The position numbers and the translations under genes are program-made. Under the pieces are notes generated by a model. That model was not told the origin of the DNA, made no database searches, and saw only the letters and a list, made by a program, of their open reading frames with translations. 64,000 bases of DNA, taken from assembly GCA_938045545.1 (NCBI GenBank), contig CALIBN010000012.1, positions 64,001 through 128,000 of the forward strand, in the 5' to 3' direction. Position 1 is the first letter of the stretch; each line of letters begins with the position of its first letter. Shown piece after piece: positions 42,718-59,343 of this stretch. Source of the DNA: an uncultured archaeon (GTDB lineage Archaea > Thermoproteota > EX4484-205 > JAAOZP01).

Positions 42718-44262
42718 CTACAACCCTATTTTAATAGGTGTTTTCCCTGCTGGTTTAAACTTGCCCTTTAAAACCTTCAAAGCAGCCTTGACGGCGGTTA
42801 AACTCGGGGTGAAAGCAGCAACACAGATCTTAGCACTGCTCAACTGGGGCAGATCCTCAGGGGCTCCGAGCGAGATGACTATGCTCTCCCTAAAGAACTC
42901 CACAAGCTTTTTAAGCATGGATAGCTCCCGCCTGTTTTCCTGGGTGTTGTAAGCCAGTGCTAAGAGAAGCGTGTTGCTAGGGGTGCTTCTGTAAATCTCA
43001 CCCAGCTTCTTGCCAGAAATCTCTTCGAAGCGCTCTAAAAGGTTGAACCCTCCAAGCTCTTCCCTCAAGACTTCTTCAAGGGCGATCCTGCCTGGCTCCC
43101 CCAGCTGGTCTTCAAACTTACCTGTGACGACGACTAGAGGTTTACCCAGCCATCTTAAGGGGAGTTCCTCAACACCCTTCACCAGCGTTATGCTCCGAAT
43201 AAATATCTTCCAAGCCTTAGTCCGGTTTATAATGCTGCCACGTGTTTTCTCAGGAGTCTTTTTAAACTTTTCAAACTTTCTAAGTTTAAAACTGAGCACT
43301 TCTAAAGCACTGCTTCTTATCCTTTCATATAAACTCCTGTCCCCTTTAGCTTTCTCAAGAATACTGTTCAAAACCTCCTGTGTTTTTTCCATTCTTCTCG
43401 AAGGCACCACTATATGGTTGCCCGCCTTCAAGGCTTTCACCACAGCTTCTTCCAGGTCAAAGTTTTCCGATACCTGCTTATCATCCAAATAATCCGTCAC
43501 GAGAAGATTTTTAAAACCCATTTCCCGCTTAACTATTCTCTCAACAACCTTTGGCGATAACGAGGAGGGTGTGTCCACGTCCCCCGCAGCCGGAAGAGGG
43601 CTGTGCCCAATCACAACCCCCTCGACGCCCGATTTAAATGCCTGTTGAAAAGGCTTGAAGTCTCTTCTGAGAAGCCCGTTAAGGTCTTCAGCCTCGCCAC
43701 CATGCTTCTCAAGCCTACCAGGGAAATATTTGACGAAAGATAAGACACCACCGTTTCTAAGACCCCTTATGTAGCTGACAACGTAGCCGGATACTTCATC
43801 AGGCTCATCCCCAAAGCAGTTTTCACCCATTCCGGGGGAATAAAGGTTCGCCACCGGCGCCAAGTTAGTGTTAATGCTGAGCGTCCTTAATTCTAAGGCG
43901 GTCACGTAACCGGTCATGTAGGCTGACTTCACCTCTCCGGTTGCACTCACGCCCATTTGGCTGGGCAACTCGGTTAAAGGCGGGTGAAGACCCTCAAGCC
44001 CCTTGCCCTCGTGCTCAGCAGCAATTATGAGGGAGAAGCCTAGGGCTCTCCTGTATGAGGCAGCCAGCTCCTTCAACAAGTAGCCTGGATTCTTAAGCCC
44101 GGAAAGGGCTTTCCTTCCGATTATCACGCCGCTTAAAGCGTTATCCAAAACAATTTTTTCAAGCTCGCTGAAGTTTTTCACCTCGTTAACATAGCCCATC
44201 ACTGTTTGGCCGGCGATTTTTTCGAAAGGCGTTCTCTGAACGATCCGCTCCAGCGTGACCAT
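42718..44262 (-). CDS. GH3 (NagZ-like) protein with degenerate active-site motifs
   Basis: NLAPV, FGDEP, KYFPG, PSSLS, MGFKNLLVTD, ALKAG; C-terminal GAPEDL. Confidence 0.85.
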   Translation of the reverse strand: MVTLERIVQRTPFEKIAGQTVMGYVNEVKNFSELEKIVLDNALSGVIIGRKALSGLKNPGYLLKELAASYRRALGFSLIIAAEHEGKGLEGLHPPLTELPSQMGVSATGEVKSAYMTGYVTALELRTLSINTNLAPVANLYSPGMGENCFGDEPDEVSGYVVSYIRGLRNGGVLSFVKYFPGRLEKHGGEAEDLNGLLRRDFKPFQQAFKSGVEGVVIGHSPLPAAGDVDTPSSLSPKVVERIVKREMGFKNLLVTDYLDDKQVSENFDLEEAVVKALKAGNHIVVPSRRMEKTQEVLNSILEKAKGDRSLYERIRSSALEVLSFKLRKFEKFKKTPEKTRGSIINRTKAWKIFIRSITLVKGVEELPLRWLGKPLVVVTGKFEDQLGEPGRIALEEVLREELGGFNLLERFEEISGKKLGEIYRSTPSNTLLLALAYNTQENRRELSMLKKLVEFFRESIVISLGAPEDLPQLSSAKICVAAFTPSLTAVKAALKVLKGKFKPAGKTPIKIGL

Positions 44263-44386
44263 TACCTACTCGTTCACCATCCTTCCACCGCCTGACGTTT
44301 TTATCAGATGGCTCACCGTGTCACTCTGCTTTGAAATCCCTATAAGGATTTCCATATCGTTTAAAAACGGTTTTCCCAGGGCGTGT

Positions 44387-44716
44387 TCAACATTTTTCCA
44401 TGAACTCTCTCAGCCGGATGCCTCCTTGCCTACTAATCTTTTCACCGGGTGTGAAAACCCTTATGTCGCCGTATCCGAAGTCCACTACGACGTAGAGTGG
44501 AAACCCCTCGATTTCACGGGGAATCGACCCATGCACGTATAACAAGCGTTTACTAGTGGACTTAACCTGCATCAGGATACACTTGCCCCTCCTGAGGCAA
44601 ACCAGGTCTGCCGGCCCAAGGCTTCCTCCCGACCTAACGGTCGTCCAGCCGTACTTGCGGAGAAACATTCTGATCTTACGCTCAGCAAGATAGCCTTTCC
44701 TCCTAGGAGGAGCCAT
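44387..44716 (-). CDS. hjc: Holliday junction resolvase Hjc
   Basis: KGYLAER, VRSGGS, ADLV, MQVKS. Confidence 0.8.
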   Translation of the reverse strand: MAPPRRKGYLAERKIRMFLRKYGWTTVRSGGSLGPADLVCLRRGKCILMQVKSTSKRLLYVHGSIPREIEGFPLYVVVDFGYGDIRVFTPGEKISRQGGIRLREFMEKC

Positions 44717-44726
44717 GGGGCGCGAC

Positions 44727-45914
44727 CTAAACCCTTCTAATCAATTTAACGATTTCCATCCCGTCGACGAGCCCAAACGACCCTCTAAGCCCAGAATCCT
44801 CGTCGAAAGGAAGCCCGTCTCCGTTCAACCCTGGTTTCATCACGGCGAAAGGAGTCGGGTCTAACGTATGGTTTCTAACAGAAACGGGTGTCGGATGGTC
44901 TATCAGGATGCTTATCGAAACGTTTTCCTCAACGCTGGCAAGTACGCTGTCAAGTATTTTCTTGAAAAGCCTCTTATCCATCTCTTCAATAACCTTCACC
45001 TTGGTTTCGAAAGAGCCCTCGTGACCCGCCTCGTCGGGAGACTCGACATGCAGATATACGAAGTCTGATTCCTCGAGAGCTTTAACCGCGTAAACCGCCT
45101 TGTTCTCGTAGCTAGTATCGTAGTAGCCGGTTGCGCCAGGTACGTCAGGCACATGCATCTGGGCGAGCCTACCAATTCCCTTTATCAGGTCCACTGCAGC
45201 TATAACCGCACCTCTTAAGCCGTGTTTCAAGACGAAAGGCTCCAGATTTGGCATTCTGCCCTGCCCCCATATCCAGGCCATGTTCGCAGGCTTCTCCCCC
45301 TTATTTTGCCTACGGATGTTCACCTGGGTTTCAGACAGAACACTGATCGACTCAACCATCATCCTGTTGAGCAGCCTAGAGTCCTCGTTATCTGGCTTCA
45401 ACAAGTGCTTACCGTATTCCTCGCCGACAATATCGTGCGGCGGAGTAGCCTTCAACCCCTGCCCCCGCTTGGAGACGAAAATATTCCTGTAGCTGACACC
45501 CGTATAAAACCTTCCGATACTGCTGAACCTCTTGTTCAACTCCGATATCAAAACTTCAGCCTCGCTCGTAGTAATATGGCCCCCCGAGTAATCTGCAACC
45601 CTGTTTTCTTCAACAGTTATGAGATTACACCTGAAAACAACCTCGTCATCCCCGGCCCTTATGCCTCTGGCCGCAGCCTCCAACGGGCCTCTCCCAGTGT
45701 AGCAAGAGCTAGGATCATACCCAAGCATGATGAGGTTTGCAACATCGCTTCCACGAGGCAGGCCCGGCCGGAGTGTTCGGAGCATACCCATTCTCCCTCT
45801 CCTAGCTATTTCATCCATGTTTGGCTTCTCCGCCACTTGAAGAGGGGTTTTACCGTTCACCTCCTCAACTGGGTAGTCCGCCATTCCGTCGCCAACTATT
45901 ACCAGGTACTTCAA
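44727..45914 (-). CDS. apgM: Cofactor-independent phosphoglycerate mutase
   Basis: GDGMAD, TPLQ, GSDVAN, YTGRGPLEA, PDEAGH, DHPTP. Confidence 0.95.
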   Translation of the reverse strand: MKYLVIVGDGMADYPVEEVNGKTPLQVAEKPNMDEIARRGRMGMLRTLRPGLPRGSDVANLIMLGYDPSSCYTGRGPLEAAARGIRAGDDEVVFRCNLITVEENRVADYSGGHITTSEAEVLISELNKRFSSIGRFYTGVSYRNIFVSKRGQGLKATPPHDIVGEEYGKHLLKPDNEDSRLLNRMMVESISVLSETQVNIRRQNKGEKPANMAWIWGQGRMPNLEPFVLKHGLRGAVIAAVDLIKGIGRLAQMHVPDVPGATGYYDTSYENKAVYAVKALEESDFVYLHVESPDEAGHEGSFETKVKVIEEMDKRLFKKILDSVLASVEENVSISILIDHPTPVSVRNHTLDPTPFAVMKPGLNGDGLPFDEDSGLRGSFGLVDGMEIVKLIRRV

Positions 45915-45999
45915 GCCTCCTCTCCAACTATTAGAAAAGTTTTAAGATTTTCGAGCATGTTGAATAAACTTATTAGGCTTACGCATTTGAAAAACCAGG

Positions 46000-46317
46000 T
46001 TGAAGAGGAAGACGGAACAGTTGGATAAAATACTCGAGATGCTCGCTAGGAAAAGGCTTGAAGAGGCTGAGAAGCAGCTGGATGCTTTTAAGCCCAGCGG
46101 AGGATACGAGGCTGGCTACCTTAGAGGCTTAAGAGGCATTCTTCAAACGCTTAGGAGGCCTGTTGAAGGAAGCATTATGGGAGAGCCTGCAGAGGAATTG
46201 GAGAAGCATGTGAAAAGCCTCATGGAAACGGTTGAAACACATTACTTAAGTCAGGAGGAGGAGGGGTTTTTCGCAGCCTGGGTTGACTTTCTTGGGAAAC
46301 TATCCGGAGGGGAATAG
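46000..46317 (+). CDS. Hypothetical protein
   Basis: GYLRGLRGIL and EEGFFAAW motifs; 105 aa. Confidence 0.7.
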   Translation: MKRKTEQLDKILEMLARKRLEEAEKQLDAFKPSGGYEAGYLRGLRGILQTLRRPVEGSIMGEPAEELEKHVKSLMETVETHYLSQEEEGFFAAWVDFLGKLSGGE

Positions 46318-46590
46318 AATGTTATACACTAGGAACCATGTGAAGAGCCAGGCTAGGAAGAAGCTTCCCACGCCTTCTTTCCAAGTTGCGCTCTCATCCT
46401 TAAGCCTACCCCTATATATTCTTTTGAAAAAATAGTAGGTTAAAAAGTATGCCAGAACCATGTTTAGGAAGGCGCTTATTATCGTGGAAGGGGGACGCCA
46501 GAAGAAGGCGTGTAAAACACCCAGAATGGCTCCTAGAGCAACCCTCGTCCAGTAAATGAGGCTTTCAGGTTTAAATCTGTACTCGCCCAT
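46300..46590 (-). CDS. Small 3-TM protein (EMC6/Rab5ip-like)
   Basis: YWTRVALG..EGVGSFFLAWLFTWFLVYN. Confidence 0.7.
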   Translation of the reverse strand: MGEYRFKPESLIYWTRVALGAILGVLHAFFWRPPSTIISAFLNMVLAYFLTYYFFKRIYRGRLKDESATWKEGVGSFFLAWLFTWFLVYNILFPSG

Positions 46591-46610
46591 TCATCTTGAG
46601 CTTGAAAGCA

Positions 46611-46627
46611 CCGAAAATAAGTCTTTC
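46611..46627 (+). repeat. attL core CCGAAAATAAGTCTTTC
   Basis: Identical to 57457-57473; in frame with TTG 46602 (MKAPKISLS). Confidence 0.9.
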
Positions 46628-46845
46628 TAAGAAGAATGGAGAAATCTCCCCGGCAACCCTCTTTTTTTCTCAACACCTCAGTCTAATTTCAAAAGAAGAC
46701 CTCTAAGTCTTAGGTCTCTGAACACACTAATCAAGCACTCTTACAACAATGTTCGGGAAGGTAGGAAGGGCGACAGGAAAGGCTTCGAAAAATTGGCACA
46801 TGTTGAAGTTTAAAGTGTTTTAACGATCTTCATGCCTAACAATTT

Positions 46846-48537
46846 CTATGTCTTCCTAAAGAACTTCCAAGGTTTCCATTTTCGGGGAGGTCCTTCCCAT
46901 TCAACCATTTTCTTCCTCTTATTTGGCTTCTGCGACCTTTCTTTCCATTCGATATCTTTCTTCTCCTCATTCAGCTTTTGCGATTTCTTTAAGCACTCAT
47001 ATACGAGTGCCTGCTCAGTTGGTGCATACACATCGCAGCTTTGACAGTAAAATGGAATTTGATCCTCCTTCGTAGCTGGAACAGGTTTTTCCTTCACTTT
47101 ACCTTCTCTTCTACTTCCTATTTCAAAGGTTTCGAATTCTCCTACTTTGACTTCTCCGCGTGCCAAGGGGACTTCTCCATAACCCTCAAGGTCTTTCTTT
47201 ATCTCACTGGACCCTACGGGACTTTTTCCAATTTCAACTCGCTCCGCAACATTTTCATGCCTAGAGGCCTCTGTGAAATCGATAAGAACAGCATAAGGTT
47301 CGCTCCGTAGTTTGAGGCTGTCCTCAGCTGCTTTCTCATCCGGTTTCCTAAGCACCCTTCCACGGATCTGGATGTAGCTCAGGGGGGACCTAACTGGTCT
47401 GGCAATTATCAATACCTCTAGGTTCTTATCGTCAAAACCCATTTTAGCCATGTCCACAGTAACGAGAATTCCCTCTTTCTTTTTTCTAAATTCTGAAAGA
47501 ACCTCCTCCGCTTCGTCAATATTATAGTGTGCTACAGAGACTAGGTTATTCCTGTGACAAAGATCTCTAATCTTGCTATCCAATTCCTTCTTTATCAAAT
47601 CAGCCTCTCCCGTATTGGCTGCAACGACTAGGGTTTTAGGGATCCTCCTCTTAAGCGATTCTTCCCCAACCTCTTTCTTAAGGACTTCGATTATTTTCTC
47701 CGCATATTTCTCTGCCCTTTCATATATTGCGACCTGCCATTCATCTAATCTCCAAACCGGTTCTGAAAAACGATCTTTCTCTTCCAAGCGAATGCTATCT
47801 TTAACGACTTTTGTTATCGTCCGATATATCTTCAAACGCTCCATAAGGATGCCCATATCCATGGCCTTTCTAGTTGAGCAAGAATAGACGGGCTCTCCGA
47901 GGGCCTCCTTTGCCTCTTTAGTTGGCGTCGCGGACAATCCTAAGATGAATCTAATGTTCGCGATTTCTTGAAGAGTCTCGATTACTTTTCTGATTTCAGG
48001 ACCCCAGTATGTGTGATGGACTTCGTCAAGAATTGCTGCGTATACTTCAGTGATCATGTCCTTAAATTCAGAACCCTTCTCTGAGAATTGCCGGTTGAGT
48101 AGTTGTGGGGTAGTTGGAATCACCACGCTTATTATTCCTTCGTCTTTCAAAAGATATTGCAGATGTTTACCCTTAGTCTCCCACAACTCATTTGAGATAG
48201 GAGTATAAATCTGCATCTGTAAATCTTTTAGCTTTTTTAATAAAAGATCTCCCTCCTCTTTTGCTTGATCTAGAAGTATTTCTAGTGGAGCCAGCCAGAG
48301 CACTTTATCACCTTTCCTCAAATCCTCTCTAAGGAAAAGGTAGAGGAGAAAAGTGAATGCGAGCCTAGTCTTTCCCGTGCCGGTGGGCATGGCGATAATT
48401 CCAGATAGTTTATCGTGTTCCTTCTTAAGCAATTCATCCAACCGCTTGAGAGCCTCTTTCTGAATGTCGTTTAATTCATGGCCAGTTATCTCCTTCACCA
48501 GCTCGTTAAGCTGCTCTGGAGACACCACATTAGCCAA
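46846..48537 (-). CDS. SF2 (ResIII/HsdR-like) helicase with no evident nuclease domain; start uncertain
   Basis: MPTGTGKT, LDEVHH, GLSATP, MGFD, YIQIRGRVLR, LIDF. Confidence 0.9.
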   Translation of the reverse strand: MANVVSPEQLNELVKEITGHELNDIQKEALKRLDELLKKEHDKLSGIIAMPTGTGKTRLAFTFLLYLFLREDLRKGDKVLWLAPLEILLDQAKEEGDLLLKKLKDLQMQIYTPISNELWETKGKHLQYLLKDEGIISVVIPTTPQLLNRQFSEKGSEFKDMITEVYAAILDEVHHTYWGPEIRKVIETLQEIANIRFILGLSATPTKEAKEALGEPVYSCSTRKAMDMGILMERLKIYRTITKVVKDSIRLEEKDRFSEPVWRLDEWQVAIYERAEKYAEKIIEVLKKEVGEESLKRRIPKTLVVAANTGEADLIKKELDSKIRDLCHRNNLVSVAHYNIDEAEEVLSEFRKKKEGILVTVDMAKMGFDDKNLEVLIIARPVRSPLSYIQIRGRVLRKPDEKAAEDSLKLRSEPYAVLIDFTEASRHENVAERVEIGKSPVGSSEIKKDLEGYGEVPLARGEVKVGEFETFEIGSRREGKVKEKPVPATKEDQIPFYCQSCDVYAPTEQALVYECLKKSQKLNEEKKDIEWKERSQKPNKRKKMVEWEGPPRKWKPWKFFRKT

Positions 48538-48667
48538 GACTCTGTCATACTGACTGGTGTTTCTCCAAAATAAGTTTTCCTTAAGGCCAGAGAAACGAGG
48601 GAAATAAACCCTTAGAGCATGATTTCCAAGATTTATAAGTAGTTGGAATATAGGAAGAGACAGCACT

Positions 48668-51600
48668 ATGCTTAGGGGAGTAATAAGAGAGGCTAAGGTT
48701 GAAGAGGAGCTTTTCAGGATATTTAAAAACGTTCTAGAGAAGAAAAATCGTGAAATAGAGGGTGTATTTTTTCATGATTTGGAACCCCAATATCCGGTTG
48801 ACTCAGGAGAGGCGGATCTGGTTCTTTTCACGGATAGGCCGAGGAAACCAATTCTTGTCATAGAGTGTAAGAGGAAGGATTTGAAGACCAGGAGGGAAAT
48901 AAGAAGCATAGACCCAATGAGTCCAAAGGTCATCGATCAAGCTCTATTCTATGCCACGAAAATAGGTGCACCACTGTTTTCAACGACTAATGGAAGGGTT
49001 TTCACACTGTTCATTAAGCCTAAACCCGATGAGCCGTTCAGCATTGAAAGACATAGGCTTCTAATAAAAGAGATAGAGTTGAGGGAGGAAAGCATAGAAG
49101 AAATCCTAGGTCTTGTAGCGAAATGGAAAGCAGGAGTCCCGGTCACTAGGACTGCAATAGACTGGACGTTCATAATTAGGCTGAGGAGCTTTGTAGAATG
49201 GCTTTCCGAACAGCTCCTTCCAGCCATAGAAAAAAAGGCTAAGCAGAAGGGCGAATTCGCGGCTAAACTGAAGGAGCATGAGGATAAATTGGGAAAAATA
49301 AGCTCTGAAATATTTGCAAGAGAAGCCGCCTACTTACTGATGAACAAGATAGTTTTCTATAAGATTCTTGAAAGACATTATCCGCTGGAGGAGCTTAAGG
49401 GCATAGTTGCGTCAAATTCGGAAAGCTATATGAATGCACTTAAAGAATACTTCAATAAGGCTATAGAAGTAACTGATGACTTTGAACCGATATTCTCAAC
49501 AGGCGTTTACGATTATGTTCCAATGCCGGATGAGGAATGGGTTCTTGAGGAGATAAACGCGTTCATCGAAGATATGGGAAAATACAGGCTTGAAGAAATC
49601 GGAAGCGATGTTGTCGGCTTCATCTATGAGAATCTAATTCCTCCGGCGGAAAGACATAGCTTAGGACAATTCTACACTCCTCCTCCAATAGCGGAGCTCA
49701 TAGTTAAATGGGCAGTAAGAAGCCCTGAGGACAAGATTTTAGATCCAGCTGTTGGAAGCGGAACTTTCCTGATTAAAGCCTATCAAAGGTTGAAGGAGCT
49801 TAAGAAAGAACCTTCTCACGAAGAAATTTTAAAGCAGATTTACGCCCTGGACATTAATCCTTTCCCAGCCCACTTGACTGCGATGAATCTTGCGATGAGA
49901 GATGTGAAACATCCCGTGAGTGAGATGAATATTTTGGTTCGAGACTTCTTTCAACTGATGTATGGTCAGAAGTACTTTGTTGCTTATTCGGTGAAAACTC
50001 CAAGAGGAGAAAGAGAGAGAAAAATATCAATACCTTTATTTGATGCTATAGTGGCGAATCCCCCCTATACTAGATGGACCGAAATCCCTGAGAAAACAAG
50101 AATGCTCATTGGAGAAACAATAGGAGAAACTCTAAAGAAATATAACTTGACAGCTAGGGTGAGACAGGGAATAGAACCTGGAATCTATATGCACTTCATA
50201 ATGTGGGGATTAAACTTTCTGAGAGAGGGAGGTAGACTTGGAATGATAATCTCTGATAGCTGGCTCCAAACAGATTACGGGGTTGACTTCGGAAAATTCT
50301 TACTGGATAATTTTAAGGTTAAGGCTTTGATTGACATTTCTTCAAGGGTCTTTCCCGTCCCGCTGATAGGCACATGTATAATACTTCTAGAAAAATGCAG
50401 CAGAAAAGAGGAAAGGGAGGAAAACAAAGCTGTTTTCATGTATCTGAACATAGAGAAAGAAGGAAGCCTCCAGGTTGAGGAAATTCTAGACGCTATTGAA
50501 AGACCTGAGCATTATGAAGAAAAATACATGGTGAAAGTTGTTAAGCAGAGCGAAATAAGCAGAGACCAAAAATGGATAAACATAATATTCGACACCGAAG
50601 GCATCCTAGAAAAGCTTGGAGAAAAAACTACTTCCATGAAAGAATACTTTGAACTAAGTAGAGGAAACAGCCTATGGTCAATATGGTCCATGAAACATGG
50701 AAGGAGACCTGATGTTGGTGCAAAAGACTTCTTTTATCTTAACGAGGGCAAAGTTAAACAATGGGGTTTAGAGGATTATGCCTATCCCGCTTTAACGAGC
50801 TCAAGGTATGCGGCAAACTTCACATTCACTAAAAAAGATTGGGAAGAGCTTAGAGAAAGAGGGGCAGATTGCTACTTATTCATTTGTCATAAGAAGAGGA
50901 ATGAGTTACCAAGTAATGCTAGGGATTACATAAAGTGGGGAGAAACAGAGTGCAGAACTCAAATTAGAGGAACTAGGGGAGGAGGAAAGATCTGCAGTGA
51001 AGCACTTGCCTGTCAAGAAAGGGAAAAACTAGCAAGACGGCCTAAAGGTGAAAGGCTCTTCTACGGATGGTATGACCTTGGAGGGGTAGAAAAAGCATCA
51101 ATAATGGCAGTACGTCAATCAAGATATAAAACAAGGTTCATTTTATGTCAATACCCAATTGTTACTTATGATGCGATAATAACCTTTATTCCAAAGGTAA
51201 GGCTTTCAGAATCACAACTTAAAGCTTTGTTAGCCTACTTGAACTCAAGCGTTGTTCAACTGTATATAGAGTCTACGGGAAGGACAACAGGTGCAGTAGG
51301 TCCCATAGGATTAGAAGTGAAACATGCCCAAGAGATTCCGGTCATAGATGTTAATTCTTTAGATAAAAAGGACCTTGAAAGGCTTTCAAACCTGTTTGAG
51401 AAGCTAGAAAAAAAGGCTAGAGAGCTCGGAGGGGCAGACAAGCAGGAGAATGTAGAAAACCTCTGGGATAGCGTAGTAGCAGAAATAGATGAAGAAGTCG
51501 CGAGGATACTGCAGTTTCCGAAGAGATTAGCAAGGGATTCGAGAGTTTTAGCCAAGGCGATGATGGGGAGGAGGCTCTCGAGGACAGTAGAAGTCGCACC

Positions 51601-51703
51601 GGAGGCAATAGGCGGTGAAGAGATAAAGAGAATGAGGATTCCTAGGAAAAGCGGGAAAACTGCGGAAAATAAAGAACTTTCGTCTCTCAAAGAATGGTTT
51701 TAG
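48668..51703 (+). CDS. Type IIG restriction endonuclease/N6-methyltransferase fusion
   Basis: ADLV..VIECK nuclease motif, GQFYTP, LDPAVGSGTF, NPPY, C-terminal TRD-like LLAYLNS. Confidence 0.92.
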   Translation: MLRGVIREAKVEEELFRIFKNVLEKKNREIEGVFFHDLEPQYPVDSGEADLVLFTDRPRKPILVIECKRKDLKTRREIRSIDPMSPKVIDQALFYATKIGAPLFSTTNGRVFTLFIKPKPDEPFSIERHRLLIKEIELREESIEEILGLVAKWKAGVPVTRTAIDWTFIIRLRSFVEWLSEQLLPAIEKKAKQKGEFAAKLKEHEDKLGKISSEIFAREAAYLLMNKIVFYKILERHYPLEELKGIVASNSESYMNALKEYFNKAIEVTDDFEPIFSTGVYDYVPMPDEEWVLEEINAFIEDMGKYRLEEIGSDVVGFIYENLIPPAERHSLGQFYTPPPIAELIVKWAVRSPEDKILDPAVGSGTFLIKAYQRLKELKKEPSHEEILKQIYALDINPFPAHLTAMNLAMRDVKHPVSEMNILVRDFFQLMYGQKYFVAYSVKTPRGERERKISIPLFDAIVANPPYTRWTEIPEKTRMLIGETIGETLKKYNLTARVRQGIEPGIYMHFIMWGLNFLREGGRLGMIISDSWLQTDYGVDFGKFLLDNFKVKALIDISSRVFPVPLIGTCIILLEKCSRKEEREENKAVFMYLNIEKEGSLQVEEILDAIERPEHYEEKYMVKVVKQSEISRDQKWINIIFDTEGILEKLGEKTTSMKEYFELSRGNSLWSIWSMKHGRRPDVGAKDFFYLNEGKVKQWGLEDYAYPALTSSRYAANFTFTKKDWEELRERGADCYLFICHKKRNELPSNARDYIKWGETECRTQIRGTRGGGKICSEALACQEREKLARRPKGERLFYGWYDLGGVEKASIMAVRQSRYKTRFILCQYPIVTYDAIITFIPKVRLSESQLKALLAYLNSSVVQLYIESTGRTTGAVGPIGLEVKHAQEIPVIDVNSLDKKDLERLSNLFEKLEKKARELGGADKQENVENLWDSVVAEIDEEVARILQFPKRLARDSRVLAKAMMGRRLSRTVEVAPEAIGGEEIKRMRIPRKSGKTAENKELSSLKEWF

Positions 51704-52040
51704 CACATGCTAAAAAGCAGGAGTTAATTATAATGGCCTGAACCATCCCCTGCTAATGATGCATATATACCGTTGGCATTCCATGATTGACCCATAAAGT
51801 CCAGTCTGACTGCTGATGTCCTTAGAGTAATCAAATGAAAGAAGGAAAGGAGGAACCGGAGAGACCTAGAGGGGGAAATGGTCCTGACCCAAAAAGCTTT
51901 AGCCGGGATGTGCTTGGCCTTAGGGGATTCTAGATGGCCCATGAGAATAGGCATGCATAGTAAGCCTGTATGAGGGGCCTTCCATGGCTAACTATTGGCT
52001 TTGTGGGAAGCCCACCGTTATAGCATGCTCATTCCTTCTT

Positions 52041-52106
52041 CACGTTCTCGAAACGTCGAAAACGATGGAGAACGAGACTAAAACGTTGCAGAACGATGAA
52101 AACGTT
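52041..52106 (+). repeat. Helically phased AACG array
   Basis: AACG at 52052, 52061, 52071, 52082, 52092 and 52101 (spacing 9,10,11,10,9). Confidence 0.7.
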
Positions 52107-52136
52107 AAAAATACTTAGCGTCTCTCTGTTGGAGAA

Positions 52137-52850
52137 GTGTCGATGAAACACCAAATAGTCCAATTCGTCCAGGAGTTCCATAAGCAAAATGGCAGGGCTC
52201 CGAGCGTCAATGAGATTCTTAAACACTTTAAGAATAATGGGTTATGCTCCTCCACCTTTTACCAATTTTTCCCAAAAGGCTTAAAAGAACTTTGTAGCCT
52301 CGCCGGTATTCCAGTTCCGGTTGAACGCATTCGAAAAACAGCGAAAGCCACAGCAGCCCTCAGAGAGGGTAGAAAGGGGGATGTGCATCGAGAAACAGCC
52401 TTGAGCCGCCTAATTCTGACGGAGGAGCAGACAAAGAGGCTCCTCGGCCTAAGCCACTTGGAGGGAGGAAGGGACCCGCTTCTGATAATGGACCAGTTGC
52501 TGGATTTGGACACTGTGTTGAGGAAAGAGTTTAAACTTACACTTGAGGATATCGCTCGCGTAGCTGTTTTCCTAAAGTACGCTGTGTCCATCGGCTGGAG
52601 GATCAAGCAGGATCCAGACCTGCTCGATTGCCTGACGAGAGCCTGGAATCTAGGGCTGCTTGGGCTCGAGCCCAGGGCCGTGCAGTACCTCGTCGAAGTC
52701 CTAGAGGATGCTCAGGCAAGGGGATGGAAGCCGAATGAGTTCGCTAATTATGTTACCAAGTTCTATAATGGAATTCTGGCTTACATCATGTACGAGAAGG
52801 GTTTAATATGCTTCGAAGAATTCAGGAGGAGGGTCGAAACTCATGTCTAA
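52137..52850 (+). CDS. Hypothetical protein with LexA-like N-terminal wHTH
   Basis: QIVQFVQEFHKQNGRAPSVNEI. Confidence 0.7.
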   Translation: MSMKHQIVQFVQEFHKQNGRAPSVNEILKHFKNNGLCSSTFYQFFPKGLKELCSLAGIPVPVERIRKTAKATAALREGRKGDVHRETALSRLILTEEQTKRLLGLSHLEGGRDPLLIMDQLLDLDTVLRKEFKLTLEDIARVAVFLKYAVSIGWRIKQDPDLLDCLTRAWNLGLLGLEPRAVQYLVEVLEDAQARGWKPNEFANYVTKFYNGILAYIMYEKGLICFEEFRRRVETHV

Positions 52851-53493
52851 GCCTGACGGCCTAGCTGAGTTCCTACTCAAAAGAGCTGAGCAGGTTGAGG
52901 CAGAGAGGAGGGCTGAGGCTGAAAGACAAGCAGCGATAATGGCACATAAGATATGGCTTCACCACCAGGCTGCAAACAGGGCTAGGAAGGAGCTTGAGGA
53001 ATACCGGAAGCTCCTTAACGATTCCAGGGGCCTCATATCCTCACGAGATATCAAGGCCAATGAGATTCTCATAGAAGAGCTCCAGGGCAGGCTAATGTCC
53101 GATCCGGAGGGGGCTGAGGAGGAAGCGAGGATCTATCGAAAGTTCCTGGAGGCTAACGTCAAGAGAATCAGGAGGGCTGGGGAGAATAAGAGGGGGAGGG
53201 CACTCGAACGTAAAAGTGATGAGGCGATGCTCCATTCTCTCAGGTACGTAGCGGGGCTGAACGAACTATCGAAGAGCATTGATGAGCTATGTAACAAATG
53301 GCTTTCAATAAGCAGGGACAATTCTCAGGCGGGGAGGCTTTATGTCCTGTTGCTCAGACATATGGGGTTCAACGTCAACAGCCTTTCAGAAGCGAGGAGT
53401 GTCTTAAAGAAAGAGCTAAGGGAAGCGTTTGAGAAGAGGCTTACGGAGAAGATAAAAGCCTTCCATGAGTCCGGAGGTTTTAGCACCTGCTAA
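52843..53493 (+). CDS. Hypothetical coiled-coil protein
   Basis: E/R/A-rich helices; overlaps the upstream gene. Confidence 0.7.
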   Translation: MSKPDGLAEFLLKRAEQVEAERRAEAERQAAIMAHKIWLHHQAANRARKELEEYRKLLNDSRGLISSRDIKANEILIEELQGRLMSDPEGAEEEARIYRKFLEANVKRIRRAGENKRGRALERKSDEAMLHSLRYVAGLNELSKSIDELCNKWLSISRDNSQAGRLYVLLLRHMGFNVNSLSEARSVLKKELREAFEKRLTEKIKAFHESGGFSTC

Positions 53494-53749
53494 ATCTGAG
53501 AAGACATTTATCAGGTTGAGTTGCTCTAGCTAAAGTTCTCCTAAGCCGAGAAGAAGGGTTATTTTCCAGGTTAGAATGCCTTTTCCCTTAGGCCTGTTCT
53601 TCCATGTTAAAATCCATATCTTGCTCGATTTTTCGCATGAATCATGAAATGACTTTTGCAGTTAAAACATGTCATATGTTTTTCTATATAAATTTTTCTG
53701 TTGATAAGATTAAATATTTATCTTTAGAGTTAATCAAAGTTAACTTTAA

Positions 53750-53773
53750 AAATTTAGTGTATACACTAAATTT
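53750..53773. repeat. Perfect 24-bp palindrome in an AT-rich intergenic region
   Basis: AAATTTAGTGTATACACTAAATTT. Confidence 0.85.
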
Positions 53774-53853
53774 AGAAGAAACCAAATAGTTAGCTTTAAA
53801 TATCGGTGATAAAAAAGTACGACTAATATGAAAAAACTTAAAAGTACGCTTAC

Positions 53854-54093
53854 ATGCAAAGTATCATAATGAGTAAAGTGAAGGTAGTTAAGGTTTCAAG
53901 TAACGGTACAACAAGCCTAGTTTACATTCCGAAGAAATTTGCGAAAGAATTGGAAATTAAAAAAGGTAATTACATCAAGATGATTTTAGCAGGTGGGCAA
54001 ATCATTATTCAGCCACTCGACCTCGGCTATGAATGCGGGCCCGGTCGAGTGGGCAGGCCCTCCAGCAGGAGTGAACCTGCAAATGAAGGATGA
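53854..54093 (+). CDS. AbrB/MazE/SpoVT-family DNA-binding protein
   Basis: KVVKV..SLVYIPKKFAKELEIKKGNYI..IIIQPL. Confidence 0.85.
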   Translation: MQSIIMSKVKVVKVSSNGTTSLVYIPKKFAKELEIKKGNYIKMILAGGQIIIQPLDLGYECGPGRVGRPSSRSEPANEG

Positions 54094-56077
54094 GGAGGAT
54101 GTACTACTTAAACATTTCTCCAGCAATGTTAAGAAGGCCCAAGAGTTCGTGGTGAGAGAAATAGAAAAGGAAGAAAGCAAAGAAAACAAGAAGACGATTA
54201 AAACTATCTTTGAAGATCTGAACGATTTCATCGTCCAAGAGATTTGGAGCAATGGGCCAAAGCTTCTAATCTGGGATAAGAGGGATGGGAAGGTTAATGT
54301 TTGTGAAGAATTCGAATGGGGAAATATCGTTTACAAGCCTCATAACATACCGATCGGGAGGAAAGGCAGACCACTTGTTACTTTGGCGTCAAAACCCATA
54401 CCTTATAGAAACGAGAAAGACCTGCTTGAAAGGATCAGAGAGTTCATTGATCGCTATTCGGATTTAGAGCCATGGGCTTTAGAATTTACATCGAGGTTCG
54501 TCATGCATAGCTGGGTTTATGACATGGGAGATTATGCAATCCAATTATGGATAAAGGGGCTCACGGGCTCAGGTAAAACGAGGTTTCTTAAGCTTCTCGC
54601 CCTGCTCTGCTATAATGCCCTTTATGTCGGTGGTAATGCAAGTTTCTCGGCCTATAAAAGGCTAATCTCGAAATATAGGGGCACGTTGTTGATCAACGAG
54701 TTCGAGCTAAAGGATGAAGATGACTCCAACGAGGTCATAATTTGGCTCAACAATGGATTCGAAAAGGATAATGAATTTCCATTAAGCAGAAAAAACCAAC
54801 CTGAGAAACAAGATTTTTTCGACCCTTTTGGTCCTAAGGTGATAGCATCCAGAAGCCTGATCTCAAACCCCGCCACTCTTTCGAGGATGGTCGTTATTGA
54901 GATGCATAAGACATCGAGAAAAGACATTCCTATCAAATTGCCTGCTGAAGCCTATCGTGAAGCTGAAGAGATTAGAAACATGCTCCTATTCTTCAGGCTT
55001 AAACACTACAAGAGTGATTATGCGTTACGCTCTGATCTCGATGAGAGGCTTAGAAACGATGAGGTTATCGATGGACGCTTTAAGCAACAGGCTTACCCCA
55101 TGCTCGAGCTCTATGAGATAGCAGGTCTAGATGTCAACGAGGTTTTCAACTTCTATAGGAAGCTCACCCTGGACTTTAAGAAGAGGCAGGCGGAGTCAAC
55201 GCCTGAAGGCGTGATCTTCCATGCGATCATGGAGTTATGCAGCCTCCAAGATTGTAACAACCCCGATTTCTCAGGCCACATCGTTAAGGAGGAGGTAAAG
55301 GATGAAACCGGCCAGGAGAAAAAGGTCTATGGATTGGTGGGCATAACAACCAGGCTTTTGGAAGACAAAACTGGCTTCTCGAAGTATACCATAACAAAGG
55401 CCTTAAGCCACATAGGGATGGTTCAAGAGAGGAGGAAGACGAAGGTTATAATCTATGACCTCAGAGGAGATTTTACCGAACGAACTAGATATTTAAGACT
55501 CTGGAAGTTTAAGAGTGAAAGAACTTGGAAGGAGGCCCTCGACCAATACTATGTGGGGGATGTGTCCCTAGCGAGTGGCACCACCGACACCTTTGACACC
55601 TTGCCCATTCCGGAGATTCTAAAAAGTAGGGACTTTAACTCTGAAAAGATGCCAGAAAATGTCCTTTTAAATAGCACAAACAATGTGGAAAATGCCAATA
55701 AAAAGTCATCTTTCTTCGAGAGCCCTGACCTGGAGAAAGATGTCCAGGTGGCGAAGGTGCCAGAGGTGCCACTTGATGGAGACACATATGTTCCCGAGCA
55801 GGAGGGCAAGGCTGAACTCCAGAGTTTAAGTCCCTCTTTTGAGAATCTAATTATCAGGTCTGGAAGCTACATCCGAAAATCTCTTAAAGATTTCTCCAAG
55901 TACCATTACGCTGAGCTGGTTTGTCAGATTTGTAACTCTATCGACGAAGTCTTCGCCAGAAAAGTTAGCGATACCCAAATAGCTTACCTGTGCGATGAGT
56001 GTGTGAAGAAGGCCTCTGACCTGAGGATCAGCCTCGAGGAACTTCTCGAAAAGAGTCAAAGAGGCGAAGCGGCCTAA
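54083..56077 (+). CDS. P-loop ATPase, probable replication helicase, with C-terminal CxxC-CxxC
   Basis: GLTGSGKTR, GTLLINE, FGPKVIAS, TLSR; CQIC..CDEC; GGAGTGA SD before ATG 54083. Confidence 0.8.
   Translation: MKDEEDVLLKHFSSNVKKAQEFVVREIEKEESKENKKTIKTIFEDLNDFIVQEIWSNGPKLLIWDKRDGKVNVCEEFEWGNIVYKPHNIPIGRKGRPLVTLASKPIPYRNEKDLLERIREFIDRYSDLEPWALEFTSRFVMHSWVYDMGDYAIQLWIKGLTGSGKTRFLKLLALLCYNALYVGGNASFSAYKRLISKYRGTLLINEFELKDEDDSNEVIIWLNNGFEKDNEFPLSRKNQPEKQDFFDPFGPKVIASRSLISNPATLSRMVVIEMHKTSRKDIPIKLPAEAYREAEEIRNMLLFFRLKHYKSDYALRSDLDERLRNDEVIDGRFKQQAYPMLELYEIAGLDVNEVFNFYRKLTLDFKKRQAESTPEGVIFHAIMELCSLQDCNNPDFSGHIVKEEVKDETGQEKKVYGLVGITTRLLEDKTGFSKYTITKALSHIGMVQERRKTKVIIYDLRGDFTERTRYLRLWKFKSERTWKEALDQYYVGDVSLASGTTDTFDTLPIPEILKSRDFNSEKMPENVLLNSTNNVENANKKSSFFESPDLEKDVQVAKVPEVPLDGDTYVPEQEGKAELQSLSPSFENLIIRSGSYIRKSLKDFSKYHYAELVCQICNSIDEVFARKVSDTQIAYLCDECVKKASDLRISLEELLEKSQRGEAA
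55560..55787. repeat. Intragenic inverted iteron array (putative origin)
   Basis: 42-bp arms at 55560-55601 and 55746-55787, each with three 9-bp-period GRCACCT-like units, around an AT-rich spacer. Confidence 0.75.
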
Positions 56078-56080
56078 GCC

Positions 56081-57430
56081 TTGATCTTAAGCTGTCCCTA
56101 TTGCGGTTCTTCGAAACTATTTAAAGCAGGTTTTAGAAAAACGAAGAGTGGCGAGAAGATCCAACGCTACTTATGTAGAAGCTGCTTTCGAAGGTTTGGC
56201 CTTCCTGGAAACCCTGAGGTAAAGCTCAACGTCTCCAGGGGGCTCGTCGAAGACTCTAAAGTTGTAAAGCAGCCTCCTGATGCTCCCTCTGTCGTAGGGC
56301 CTGCCCTCGAGCCAAGCCCTGAGGACTCTACGCTCCCTCTCGCTAAAGATCCTGGTGTGCATAGTACACGAATCTCGAGACAAGGGTTTTATAGTTTGCG
56401 TCTCGAAGCTAAGGACAGCAGGAGGGCAGGGAGTGAAAAGCATCCTCCTGCAGAAGGTGAAATGGATAACATGAGCAACCCTGAAGGGGTTGTGAAGAGC
56501 ATCCTGGTCCAGCGACCGGGGGCTGGGCAGGATGACAAGAAAGAGGAGCTCGAGGGCAAGCTCATAAGCTTCGCATGGTGGCTTAAGAAACAGGGACTGC
56601 GTGAGTCCACGGTAAAGCAGTATTGCAAAATACTCCGCCAGCTTGTTAAGAGCAGTGTCAACTTAGATGATCCTGAAGCGGTAAAGGAGGCTTTAGCAAG
56701 GAATGGTAGAAGCGAAAGGTGGAAGGCTCTGATAGTGCATGCCTACTCCGCATACTTAAAGATGAAGGGAAAGCACTGGGATCCCCCACGGTTCGATGTG
56801 GTTAGAAAGATTCCCTTCATACCCTTGGAGAGCGAGATCGATGCACTGATAGCCGGTTGCGGACCTAAGACTGCAGCACTGCTCCAATTGCTTAAGGAAA
56901 CCGGCATGAGGATAGGCGAGGCGTTGAGGCTGACCTGGAAGGATGTGGACCTCGAGAGAAGAGTCATAATCTTTAACGAGCCGGAGAAAAACAGCAATCC
57001 GAGAATCTTTAAAATCAGCCCCAGGCTTATCAGCATGTTGAGCATGCTTCCGAGAAACGGAGTGAGGGTGTTTCCAACGAGCTATCACAGCGTTAAAAAC
57101 AACTTTAAGCATTCTCGGAGACGCTTGGCGGAGAGACTTAATAATCCCAGACTTCTAAACATTAGTTTCCACACCTTCAGGCACTGGAAGGCCACCATGG
57201 AGTACCACAAAACAAAGGATTTGTTGCATGTCAAGGAGCTGCTCGGACATAAGAATGTAGACAACACGATGGTTTACATTCAGATCGAAAGGGCTCTTTT
57301 CAACGAGACGGATGCCGAGTTCACAGTTAGGATCGCTAAGACTCCTGACGAGATTAAAGAGCTTCTGGAAGCTGGTTTTGAGTATGTTTGCGAGAAGGAT
57401 GGCTTCCTCTTCTTCAGGAGGAGGAAATGA
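56081..57430 (+). CDS. Tyrosine integrase with N-terminal zinc ribbon; alternative start ATG 56462
   Basis: CPYC..CRSC; ETGMRIGE, K, HTFRH, LLGHK, TMVY. Confidence 0.95.
   Translation: MILSCPYCGSSKLFKAGFRKTKSGEKIQRYLCRSCFRRFGLPGNPEVKLNVSRGLVEDSKVVKQPPDAPSVVGPALEPSPEDSTLPLAKDPGVHSTRISRQGFYSLRLEAKDSRRAGSEKHPPAEGEMDNMSNPEGVVKSILVQRPGAGQDDKKEELEGKLISFAWWLKKQGLRESTVKQYCKILRQLVKSSVNLDDPEAVKEALARNGRSERWKALIVHAYSAYLKMKGKHWDPPRFDVVRKIPFIPLESEIDALIAGCGPKTAALLQLLKETGMRIGEALRLTWKDVDLERRVIIFNEPEKNSNPRIFKISPRLISMLSMLPRNGVRVFPTSYHSVKNNFKHSRRRLAERLNNPRLLNISFHTFRHWKATMEYHKTKDLLHVKELLGHKNVDNTMVYIQIERALFNETDAEFTVRIAKTPDEIKELLEAGFEYVCEKDGFLFFRRRK
56171..56362 (-). CDS. 63-aa antisense protein nested in the integrase N-terminal linker
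   Basis: MHTRIFSERERRVLRAWLEG..; TATAAAA 25-31 bp upstream (56393-56387). Confidence 0.6.
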   Translation of the reverse strand: MHTRIFSERERRVLRAWLEGRPYDRGSIRRLLYNFRVFDEPPGDVELYLRVSRKAKPSKAAST

Positions 57431-59343
57431 GAATGTCCGGAAATAGTCTAAAAACTCCGAAAATAAGTCTTTCCAGCATCGACTACCGGGTGCTCTCCAA
57501 GGAGCTTTCTAAAGAGCTGCAGGGAGCATGGGTTGACAACGTGTACAAACATCCTGATTACGGATACTATCTGATGGTTTTCAGAAGCAGCGGGATTGTC
57601 AAGAAGCTAGTCATAATACCTGGGGAATCATTGTTTCTAACTCGCCGAGATTATCCTGTCCCGAGTACTCCCGAGGGCAGCGTATTGCAGCTGAGGAGAA
57701 TAGTCTGCAACCTTAGGGTTGAGAGCGTGGAGCAGCATGACTTTGACAGGATTATAATCATGAGTCTTTCCAGAGGAGGGTTTAAAACCAGGCTTATCGT
57801 GGAGGGATTGAAACGAGGCGTGATCGCCCTTGTATCTGAAGACTGGCGTATCCTCTTCACTTCTCAAAGAATCGAGATGGTAGCCAGATCGCTCAGAGAG
57901 GGGGAGAAATACGTTTTCCCACCGTCAAACATTTTCGACCCCATGTGCATCCCGGGAAGCCTGGAAGCCCTGCAGAAGTATTCCTCGGAAAAGCTTGGCA
58001 GGCTGATAGCTGGTAGGCTTGGCTTCGGGTCTAAAACAATGAGTGAGATATGCAGAAGGATAGGGCTTGATCCTGACTCAAGCGTTGAAGGAAAGATCCC
58101 TATCGTAATCGAGACCATACGTATGCTCATCAAGGAGGCTGAAGAGTCTCCGAAGCCGCGGATCTACTATCGCGAGGGACGACCGGTCGATGTGTCTGCG
58201 ATAAGGCTTCTCTCCTTGGAGAACATGGAGCAGAAGGAGGTTGAAACCGTTTCAGAGGCTTTGGATGAATACTATGCTACACTCGGGTTTGAGGCTGCTG
58301 GTGATGAAAAATCATCATTAGAGCTGAGTAGGCTGGTTAGAATAAGAGAGAACCTTGCTTCCGAAGTAGAGGCGTTGAGGAATAAGGCTAGGATGATCAT
58401 GGAGAACCTTGCGGTCTTTCAGGCAGTTTTAGACGCTGTAAGGAATAAAGTGGAAGCGCCAGCTGGTTTCAAGATTCTTGAAACCGACTACGGGAGGAGA
58501 ACTGTTAAAGTATTGTTCAACGATTCAGAGTTGAAGCTTAGCTTGGATTCCTCGGCGGCGTCAAACGCCTCCAGCATGTTTGAGGAGGCTAAGAAAATCG
58601 AGAAGCATCTTTCCGAGATTGATGGCAAGATTCTTCTGCTTAAGGAGAAGGCTTCTGCCGAAAGCAGGAGAATGGTTCCTGGGAAGAGGGTTGAAAGAAA
58701 ATGGTTTGAAAAGTTCCGATGGAACGTATCGGTTAACGGAAACTTGATTCTGGCCGGTAGAGACGCTGGGACGAACGAGCTTCTCGTCAAGAAGTATGTT
58801 TCAGATAGAAGCGTGGTGTTTCACGCGGACTTCATAGGAGCACCGTTCGTAACCATACATAATGTTGAAAACCCTTCAGAGGAGGAGCTTGAGGAGGCTG
58901 CGCTCATGGCGGCATGCTACACTGCAAGAGCTTGGGAGAACAAGTATGCTTCCCTAGACGTCTACTGGGTCAGGGGAAGCCAAGTCGGCAAGCAGGCCCC
59001 CCCAGGCCAGTACCTACCCAAGGGAGCGTTCATGATAAGGGGGGAGAAGAACTTCATTAGAAATGTTGAGCTTAAGCTTTGGATCGGAGTTTCAGATAAT
59101 GGCGAAGTGGCTTACGGGAGTCTAAGCAAGGTAAAGGCAAGGTGTAGAAAGTATGCAGTAATCCTTCCTGGAGACAAGGATAAGAATCATGAAGCTGCTT
59201 TACTCGCAAGGAAGTTTCTTAAAGACATGTCTCTTCCCCGTGAAGCATTGCCAGAGCTGCTTGAGAGGATTCGAAGCATTATTCCAGGGCGACACTGTGA
59301 AGCTCGCTACATGCCGCCCATTCCTCCGGGGCAAGGGAAATAG
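57427..59343 (+). CDS. rqcH: Ribosome quality control factor Rqc2/RqcH (NEMF family) with element-derived N-terminus
   Basis: LSSID, VEQHDFDRII, KWFEKFRW, GRDA..NE, FHAD, YLPKGAFMIRG. Confidence 0.93.
   Translation: MRMSGNSLKTPKISLSSIDYRVLSKELSKELQGAWVDNVYKHPDYGYYLMVFRSSGIVKKLVIIPGESLFLTRRDYPVPSTPEGSVLQLRRIVCNLRVESVEQHDFDRIIIMSLSRGGFKTRLIVEGLKRGVIALVSEDWRILFTSQRIEMVARSLREGEKYVFPPSNIFDPMCIPGSLEALQKYSSEKLGRLIAGRLGFGSKTMSEICRRIGLDPDSSVEGKIPIVIETIRMLIKEAEESPKPRIYYREGRPVDVSAIRLLSLENMEQKEVETVSEALDEYYATLGFEAAGDEKSSLELSRLVRIRENLASEVEALRNKARMIMENLAVFQAVLDAVRNKVEAPAGFKILETDYGRRTVKVLFNDSELKLSLDSSAASNASSMFEEAKKIEKHLSEIDGKILLLKEKASAESRRMVPGKRVERKWFEKFRWNVSVNGNLILAGRDAGTNELLVKKYVSDRSVVFHADFIGAPFVTIHNVENPSEEELEEAALMAACYTARAWENKYASLDVYWVRGSQVGKQAPPGQYLPKGAFMIRGEKNFIRNVELKLWIGVSDNGEVAYGSLSKVKARCRKYAVILPGDKDKNHEAALLARKFLKDMSLPREALPELLERIRSIIPGRHCEARYMPPIPPGQGK
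57457..57473 (+). repeat. attR core CCGAAAATAAGTCTTTC
   Basis: Identical to 46611-46627; 26 bp after the integrase stop. Confidence 0.9.

Follow-up and report, generated by a model that had tools for sequence, protein, structure and literature searches.

An integrative element in the first codons of an archaeal rqc2 gene supplies a new in-frame start codon and probably couples the gene to its integrase operon

How can a gene keep an open frame when a mobile element integrates within its first codons, and what would then drive its expression? The question is raised by the rqc2 gene of an uncultured, Brockarchaeota-like archaeon, carried on a 64,000-nucleotide stretch of contig CALIBN010000012.1 (hereafter the window, meaning this whole stretch, with positions counted from its first letter). 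A preliminary description of the window had proposed that a site-specific integrative element deprives rqc2 of its native promoter and start, gives the protein another N-terminal tail and leaves the gene directly behind the integrase, and our analysis bears out each of these points. We regard the insertion and its anatomy as practically certain. The whole explanation, including an expression route deduced from the sequence, is that the element occupies codons 4-9 of its host's single rqc2, gives the gene a new start and carries it in an element-driven operon; this we consider probable. The basis is one element in one metagenome-assembled genome.

The element is bounded by two exact copies of a 17-bp core, CCGAAAATAAGTCTTTC, at 46611-46627 (attL) and 57457-57473 (attR). 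The core had been described as a GAAA-7 bp-TTTC dyad, visible on inspection, that encodes PKISLS of Rqc2; both copies were found again, and they were the only matches in the window with up to two mismatches (0.02 expected; none of 100 shuffles reached two or more) as well as the only copies in the whole 2.03-Mb assembly. The similarity of the repeats can be extended to 23 nucleotides (nt) at 91% identity, and the spacing from copy to copy is 10,846 bp. The 10,829 bp between the copies end in an intact tyrosine integrase gene (int), and over much of the element the GC content is 0.40-0.44, versus 0.48-0.51 outside.

Comparison with relatives identified the uninterrupted form of the locus. Rqc2 homologues were searched for in 31 related genomes, 16 of them of the same genus, and found in 30; the same-genus locus was readable in 14 genomes, after dropping one whose gene touches a contig end (G011) and one whose gene is split over two contigs (G001). 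All 14 have an empty site, in which the left flank, with a divergent gene of 96 amino acids (aa), TTTAAAT and TTG, leads into one core copy and from there into CAGCATCGACTAC of rqc2. Position 46610 is thus joined to 57457, as had been anticipated for relatives, and the divergent gene directly adjoins rqc2; the element was present in none of these loci. The closest congener (97% protein identity) is one synonymous base off the expected empty site. Read data separate from the assembly agree with this: contigs of two other sequencing runs, X2 and X4 (95-99% alike), also skip 46611-57456, with 17 letters common at the joint. Since the empty sites show the native arrangement, excision would restore the native promoter, in agreement with the preliminary description.

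Occupied and empty forms were found together in run X1, which is the probable source sample of the window and hence not independent of it. Here one flanking unitig ends at 46627 (depth 34.6) and another begins at 57457 (depth 37.1); the element and both junctions lie on separate unitigs with a depth of 8.6-12.9, and the junction unitigs run from 46598 into the element (attL) and over 57354-57486 (attR). A loose end of 13 letters, again CAGCATCGACTAC, follows 46627 and leads on into the right flank. An empty-site junction takes this form in a 31-mer graph, which implies that occupied and empty sites coexist in X1. The left (27 kb) and right (11.6 kb) flanking unitigs have no listed variants and are apparently common to both forms. 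Judged by k-mer depth, which does not measure the proportion of cells, the element is in the minority in this sample, and both kinds of site, occupied and empty, are present in the host population. The element had also been suspected of enforcing its own retention. This idea was not supported, since precise excision regenerates a natively promoted rqc2 and would carry no rqc2 penalty, the flanks are covered about three times as deeply as the element, and the empty-site junction word is present.

The origin of the window in a metagenome-assembled genome of 51 contigs and the roughly three-fold difference in depth between element and flank could also be taken as signs of an assembly artefact, that is, of mis-binning or of a chimeric join of the element to the rqc2 locus at a short shared word. 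Nevertheless, independent unitigs span both junctions, the geometry is that of the integrase family (the core follows int by 26 nt, and the left-end motif lies 15 nt inward from attL), and the element tail reads in frame into rqc2. We consider such an artefact extremely improbable.

At attR the element provides a new beginning for the gene. An ATG at 57427 overlaps the integrase TGA (57428-57430) as ATGA, and a second in-frame ATG follows at 57433; both read through the core in frame, as MRMSGNSLKT or MSGNSLKT followed by PKISLSSIDY. Three variable post-initiator residues are replaced by a tail of 8 or 10 residues, which is 5-7 residues longer than the native one. In the genus, the residues between the initiator and KISLSS vary naturally (KAP, KPS, RTP, SNR, RRR and DKTR), and KISLSS(I/F/V)DY is invariant and stays host-encoded after integration. 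The resulting Rqc2 matches the Pfam domains NFACT_N (4.1e-34, 118.6 bits) and NFACT-R_1 (8.3e-28, 97.6 bits), both above their cut-offs. The gene is single-copy in the genome, has no internal stops, and is intact and identical in the right-flank unitig of X1. NFACT_N was present in 387 of the 401 genomes of the phylum.

Translation of this frame would be served by a Shine-Dalgarno (SD) site lying within the end of int. The integrase ends in ..FFRRRK*, encoded by TTC AGG AGG AGG AAA TGA, and the three arginine codons make up AGGAGGAGG. The preliminary description had already attributed to the element this sequence, the ATG-AGA-ATG start, the N-terminus MRMSGNSLKT-PKISLSSID and the ATGA overlap, and coordinates and translation agree with it. 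A survey of 1,237 open reading frames (ORFs) of at least 200 aa showed genome-wide peaks of SD-like pentamers at -17 to -11 from starts and of TATA-like hexamers at -35 to -29. GGAGG is located at -13/-16 of ATG 57433, within the SD peak, and at -7/-10 of ATG 57427, and this spacing favours ATG 57433 as the start codon in use. Among 142 distinct members of the integrase family with an aligned C-terminus, the tail is mostly ..FRKRK*, and GGAGG occurs within the last 21 nt of int in two, namely the window element and one relative adjacent to a tRNA-Asn gene. The K-to-R and CGT-to-AGG changes that create AGGAGGAGG would therefore represent a rare derived state, a result that is suggestive of an adapted start and not proof of it.

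The beginning that rqc2 has lost is of another kind. TTTAAA is found at -32 from the TTG in 13 of the 14 congeners, the TTG itself stands 9 nt before the proline codon in 12 of them (6 and 12 nt in the other two), and TTAAAT is enriched 13.7-fold at promoter distance in the genome. Together with the genome-wide TATA peak, this conservation implies that native rqc2 is most likely leaderless. In the occupied locus the native start reads into a stub of 34 codons, (M)KAPKISLSKKNGEISPATLFFSQHLSLISKEDL*, which crosses a T7 tract (46662-46668) and stops at 46704-46706. Both genus conservation and the stub translation support the earlier observation that the native TATA (46570) and TTG (46602) now lead into a T-tract and a stop. 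The tract belongs to a left-end motif, AAATCTCCCCG..CTTTTTTTC, which occurs four times in the genome, always at the left end of a sibling element or close to it; the exact motif had no match in 16 congeners, by a strict pattern, and a diverged copy is present at the left end of an element in genome G007. Being common to sibling elements at other targets, the motif is not a device specific to rqc2, and the T-tract characterises the family, where it may serve as an arm site or terminate transcription that reads in from outside.

Sibling elements show how this family treats its targets. One, of 5.5 kb (contig C23, 32721-38252), is flanked by the 17-bp repeat TTTAAGCCCAGAAAAGC and lies in the 3' end of gar1 (Gar1 family), where it re-creates the last Ala codon and the stop, so that ..KPRKA* is restored exactly. 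Another, of 9.5 kb (contig C11, about 43560-53020), is bounded by a 13-bp repeat and occupies the 3' end of a gene for a HerA/DUF87-like ATPase, where the sole change is from RS* to KH*. Its integrase, which was aligned as two separate pieces, may be broken, and two copies of the left-end motif 797 bp apart on C11 suggest a remnant or a tandem element. In G007 (contig C12, 224592-232953) a sister integrase, 63-64% identical, belongs to an 8.3-kb element with the 16-bp core GGTTAATAAGGATTAA. An element on contig C63 of genome G002 had no flanking repeat within the available 7.3 kb.

Relatives of the window integrase were found in 243 stretches of species-representative genomes (mostly Bathyarchaeia), in two viral contigs and in at least 570 metagenome stretches; full-length homology and the ..FRKRK* tail place the integrase in a Bathyarchaeia/Brockarchaeota family. 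In 52 of 178 loci, some of which repeat the same place, a tRNA gene follows shortly after the int stop, at 24-76 bp in all but one (313 bp). Core offsets from int are 29, 37 and 78 nt in the genome of the window and 37 nt in G007. The family att site is a few tens of bases 3' of the int stop, often in a tRNA gene. A quick tree of 112 distinct full-length proteins, from the loci with an unbroken alignment (122 of 178), put the window integrase in a clade of six (Shimodaira-Hasegawa-like approximate likelihood-ratio test, 100) from this genus and one metagenome, none with a tRNA neighbour. Among viral contigs no Rqc2 relative was found; the 17-mer had six matches there. A candidate attP in viral contigs L201 and L202, a 24-nt match made of 4 nt, the core and 3 nt, was judged to be due to chance, as these contigs are phage-like, have 33% GC and hold no homologues of the element proteins or Rqc2.

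How rqc2 is transcribed in the occupied locus is suggested by the packing of the genes before it. The gene for an AbrB-like protein overlaps that for a 664-aa protein by 11 nt, a gap of 3 nt separates the latter from int (start TTG 56081), and int overlaps rqc2 by 4 nt. Co-transcription is the simplest reading of this tight packing, and it is likeliest that rqc2 is transcribed together with the integrase operon. No TATA had been seen just upstream of the new start, and this stood for the last ~290 nt of int, in which a hexamer enrichment scan found no strongly enriched promoter hexamer; it did not stand further up, where weaker promoter-like hexamers occur at 57004-57010, 57093-57106 and 57136-57143, with a density approximately that of coding DNA generally. 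The 370-bp AT-rich stretch at 53500-53870 (GC ~0.37), 5' of the AbrB-like gene, is dense in promoter-like hexamers and is probably the control region of the element backbone.

As the sequence shows, integration cuts rqc2 off from its conserved, most likely leaderless promoter and TTG and fuses its body in frame to an element ATG behind AGGAGGAGG. We propose that element promoters then drive the gene as the final member of the operon of AbrB-like protein, 664-aa protein and integrase, and that its translation uses the new SD site. The element would in this manner repair its target, as its siblings do at 3' ends, tying the supply of Rqc2 to the integrase operon.

Several observations weigh against this proposal. 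The ATGA overlap alone means little, as the ..AAATGA end that produces it is found in 18 of the 142 relatives, and in the C11 sibling the same ATG opens an ORF of about 11 codons (read by eye). The longer N-terminal tail might impair Rqc2. The gene could use a promoter inside int, 290-420 nt upstream, and thus be uncoupled from int. No RNA run covering the int-rqc2 junction was listed, so that transcription across it, the start codon used and any promoter are predictions. Neither was an attP joint among the joints listed in four runs, whose contigs can miss rare forms, and activity can thus only be supposed. The k-mer depth of the element in X1, about one quarter to one third of that of the flanks, fits a recent, rare or mildly costly insertion. 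Finally, the suggestion that integrase homologues be surveyed for adjacency to rqc2 led to no second case: tblastn with Rqc2 detected none in the 177 other loci (97 further loci and 80 metagenome loci), with at least 300 bp downstream of int available in 126 of the 178. For a single case, selection for the arrangement is not demonstrable by recurrence.

Some of these points would also fit a tolerated knock-down, in which the insertion is real, rqc2 is silent or weak in carriers, the ATG and the SD-like arginine codons are fortuitous, and Rqc2 is dispensable enough for the element to survive as a rare form. In model organisms RqcH/Rqc2 is not an essential factor. The 290 nt before the new start hold no promoter-like hexamer, no RNA run was listed for the junction, the depth data of X1 mark the element as the minority form, its arrangement is unique among 178 integrase loci, and the ATGA overlap is common through the chance of ..AAA TGA. 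However, fortuitous signals are at odds with AGGAGGAGG being a rare derived state (2/142) placed at the distance from ATG 57433 that the genome prefers, and with a frame open from the element ATG through the core; the siblings repair the genes that they target, the flank unitig common to both forms carries an intact and identical rqc2, and the distribution of NFACT_N (387/401 phylum genomes) speaks for a gene that is kept. On balance, we judge a knock-down rather unlikely.

A programmed excision switch would turn ribosome quality control (RQC) on and off, or set it like a rheostat, the element excising and re-integrating with conditions. In the known switches, such as skin/sigK and the comK and mutL prophages, the host gene is interrupted and non-functional while occupied, and excision restores it. 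The window element resembles them in lying within a host gene whose native form excision would restore. It differs in that the rqc2 frame is repaired, with a start and an SD site supplied and a full-length frame holding both Pfam domains, and a parallel with comK/sigK fails here, since those insertions break the gene. The intact integrase, the identical core copies, the coexistence of occupied and empty sites in one sample on apparently the same flanking unitigs, and the return of the native promoter on excision would all suit a switch. But with a repaired frame there is no clear off state, strain heterogeneity explains the coexistence equally, and a device carried by none of the 14 congeners is not a fixed regulatory one. 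Furthermore, no recombination directionality factor was identified in the element, and no attP circle junction appeared among the contig joints listed or in the assembly (contigs can miss rare forms), the 2.03-Mb assembly holding neither an attP- nor an attB-type 33-mer. An excision switch is therefore very unlikely.

Why the core is conserved and a stable target may be explained by the neighbour on the left. Core DNA is conserved across the genus although Rqc2 proteins drop to 61% identity. On the minus strand the attL copy reads GAAAGACTTATTTTCGG, which resembles the B-recognition element (BRE) and TATA box of the divergent gene: it contains ACTTAT, CTTATT and TTATTT, hexamers that begin at -32 to -30 from ATG 46590 and show a 5-7-fold enrichment at promoter distance in the genome. 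We infer that the core doubles as BRE/TATA of the divergent gene and that the attL copy keeps that promoter whole. This double duty, as rqc2 codons 4-9 and as a neighbour's promoter, would explain both the conservation at the DNA level and the stability of the target; the core would be conserved through its second role, and the attL copy would save the promoter on integration. The core of the G007 element is likewise TATA-like on its minus strand, ~30 nt upstream of the ATG of a divergent 630-aa gene, and the clade of the window integrase may favour promoter-like AT-rich cores. The protein encoded by the divergent gene had been called EMC6-like, which can be kept as a lead only: its language-model neighbours, at scores of 0.89-0.90, include archaeal clusters with 16% PF07019 EMC6 or 30% PF19094 EMC6_arch members, whereas Pfam gave nothing better than E 0.033 and no EMC6 match.

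The minus strand of the attR core carries the same promoter-like ACTTATTTT, directed into the 3' end of int, and antisense transcription of int might start from it, both in the integrated and in the free form.

The features of the element and its flanks are collected in Table 1. The backbone consists of the AbrB-like regulator, the 664-aa protein and the integrase, and the helicase, the methyltransferase and the small proteins are cargo. The 664-aa protein has a 52%-identical homologue adjoining the sibling integrase on C23, and its Atlas neighbours include DUF3631/DUF3854 clusters (a lead only). The integrase matched a PHROG integrase (1.3e-32) and XerA 4a8e (1.8e-13); in the latter alignment GMRIGE, HTFRH and GH..(8)..Y fall over the XerA motifs, so that the putative catalytic R, HxxR and H..Y are visible. 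In PADLOC the methyltransferase part gave strong matches to MTase_II (2e-45) and REase_MTase_IIG (2.6e-34); no nuclease domain was identified in residues 1-300 of the protein. Pfam, PADLOC and PHROG searches assigned the 216-aa protein to no family. The helicase and methyltransferase ORFs, as called, begin 1 nt apart back to back (48664-48670); each promoter would have to lie in the coding region of the other gene, unless the true starts are located further inside. From 63000 to 64000, at its right-hand end, the window drops to a GC of 0.39.

Table 1. Coordinates of the element in rqc2, of its genes and of the flanking host features, in window positions.
Feature	Position	Strand	Basis and remarks
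Divergent 96-aa membrane-protein gene	46300..46590	-	Host left flank; ORF and translation
Native TATA box of rqc2, TTTAAAT	46570..46576	+	32 nt before TTG 46602
attL stub	46602..46706	+	TTG start and 8 native codons, then 25 element codons and stop; translation
attL core copy	46611..46627		Minus strand carries the putative BRE/TATA of the divergent gene
Element left-end motif, with T7 tract	46642..46669	+	15 nt inside attL
Superfamily-2 helicase (ResIII/DEAD/Helicase_C)	46846..48666	-	Cargo; Pfam, PADLOC PbeA-like 1.3e-20, PHROG DNA helicase
1011-aa N6-adenine DNA methyltransferase, Eco57I/type IIG-like	48668..51703	+	Cargo; Pfam N6_Mtase 1.1e-29, Eco57I 8.3e-19
237-aa protein with DsrC-like N-terminus and overlapping 216-aa protein	52137..53493	+	Cargo; Pfam DsrC 8.3e-08
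Promoter-like AAAACTTAAAAG	53833..53844	+	~30 nt before ATG 53869; candidate backbone-operon promoter, from hexamer scan (inferred)
AbrB/MazE-type small DNA-binding protein	53869..54093	+	Pfam MazE_antitoxin 27.7 bits (cut-off 24.7); start may be 53854
664-aa backbone protein, possibly replication	54083..56077	+	ATG 54083 with AGGAGT at -15
449-aa tyrosine integrase, intact, N-terminal zinc ribbon	56081..57430	+	Pfam Phage_integrase (PF00589) 3.9e-19, 69.5 bits (cut-off 27.1)
AGGAGGAGG	57416..57424	+	Codes RRR of the integrase tail; predicted Shine-Dalgarno site for rqc2
rqc2, present form	57427..59343	+	The element supplies the ATG (57427 or 57433) and the tail; the body, core included, is that of the host
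attR core copy	57457..57473		Codes PKISLS of Rqc2 (native codons 4-9); begins 26 nt after the integrase stop

If the proposed arrangement is true, archaeal integrative elements are able to exploit the 5' end of a protein gene as a target and to reconstruct the start of its translation. The repair would bridge a leaderless TATA/TTG beginning and an SD-led ATG, and so constitute a natural experiment on the interchangeability of initiation modes. Since the host has no second rqc2, members of one population with and without the element would differ in the wiring of ribosome rescue, a difference that is testable on environmental RNA. A more ambitious version, which we find doubtful, would have a constitutive leaderless rqc2 become the last cistron under the AbrB-type regulator of the element, so that RQC capacity follows the integrase and replication programme, the choice of a neighbour's promoter as core being part of the design. 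If so, this would be the first mobile element to take regulatory control of RQC.

Among archaeal systems, the integrated elements of Thaumarchaeota are similar in having tyrosine integrases, att sites with a median of 17 bp and protein-gene targets whose end is re-created (PMC6563490). The two siblings in the genome of the window, which rebuild 3' gene ends, conform to this type, and the rqc2 element differs by using a 5' end: the survey gives protein-gene insertions for 14 of 68 elements, all 3'-distal and none at the 5' end (PMC6563490). Section 19 of a review of archaeal recombinases, which gives protein-gene targets, mentions no 5'-end one (PMC8371274). An archaeal 5'-end target with a rebuilt start was thus not found described in these sources, and the supplementary tables of the archaeal surveys might list 5'-end targets. 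Literature searches combining NFACT or Brockarchaeota with integrase returned nothing relevant, and none of the matches listed joined an Rqc2-family term with an integration term. SSV-type integrases are archaeal tyrosine recombinases with attP inside int, which integration splits (PMC7253208, PMC8371274). A suicidal (type I) integrase of this kind was rejected for the window element, whose int is one open frame of 449 codons with the core 26 nt after the stop.

The nearest likenesses come from bacteria. The tyrosine integrase of SXT/R391 integrative and conjugative elements targets the 5' coding end of prfC, a conserved translation-factor gene (PMC8409611, PMC2791158), and the window integrase, too, targets the first codons of a conserved translation-related gene. 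SXT/R391 elements are bacterial, conjugative and about 100 kb long, and their supply of a promoter was shown by experiment; that of the window element is a prediction. In the latter, moreover, a leaderless, TATA-driven cistron would become SD-led and abut int, and the likeness is a functional one. In dusA elements such as IMEVchUSA3 the target stays expressed, at a lower level than the native gene (PMC8409611). These elements are bacterial, mobilisable by IncC plasmids and equipped with the excision factor RdfN, and they give DusA a new N-terminus of native length (PMC8409611); the window element differs by a tail 5-7 residues longer and by having no known directionality factor. With its core in the first codons and its supply of an in-frame start and a new N-terminus, the window element shares these two features with the class that restores genes at their 5' end, and, by analogy, we take its closest functional counterparts to be the bacterial SXT element in prfC and the dusA islands.

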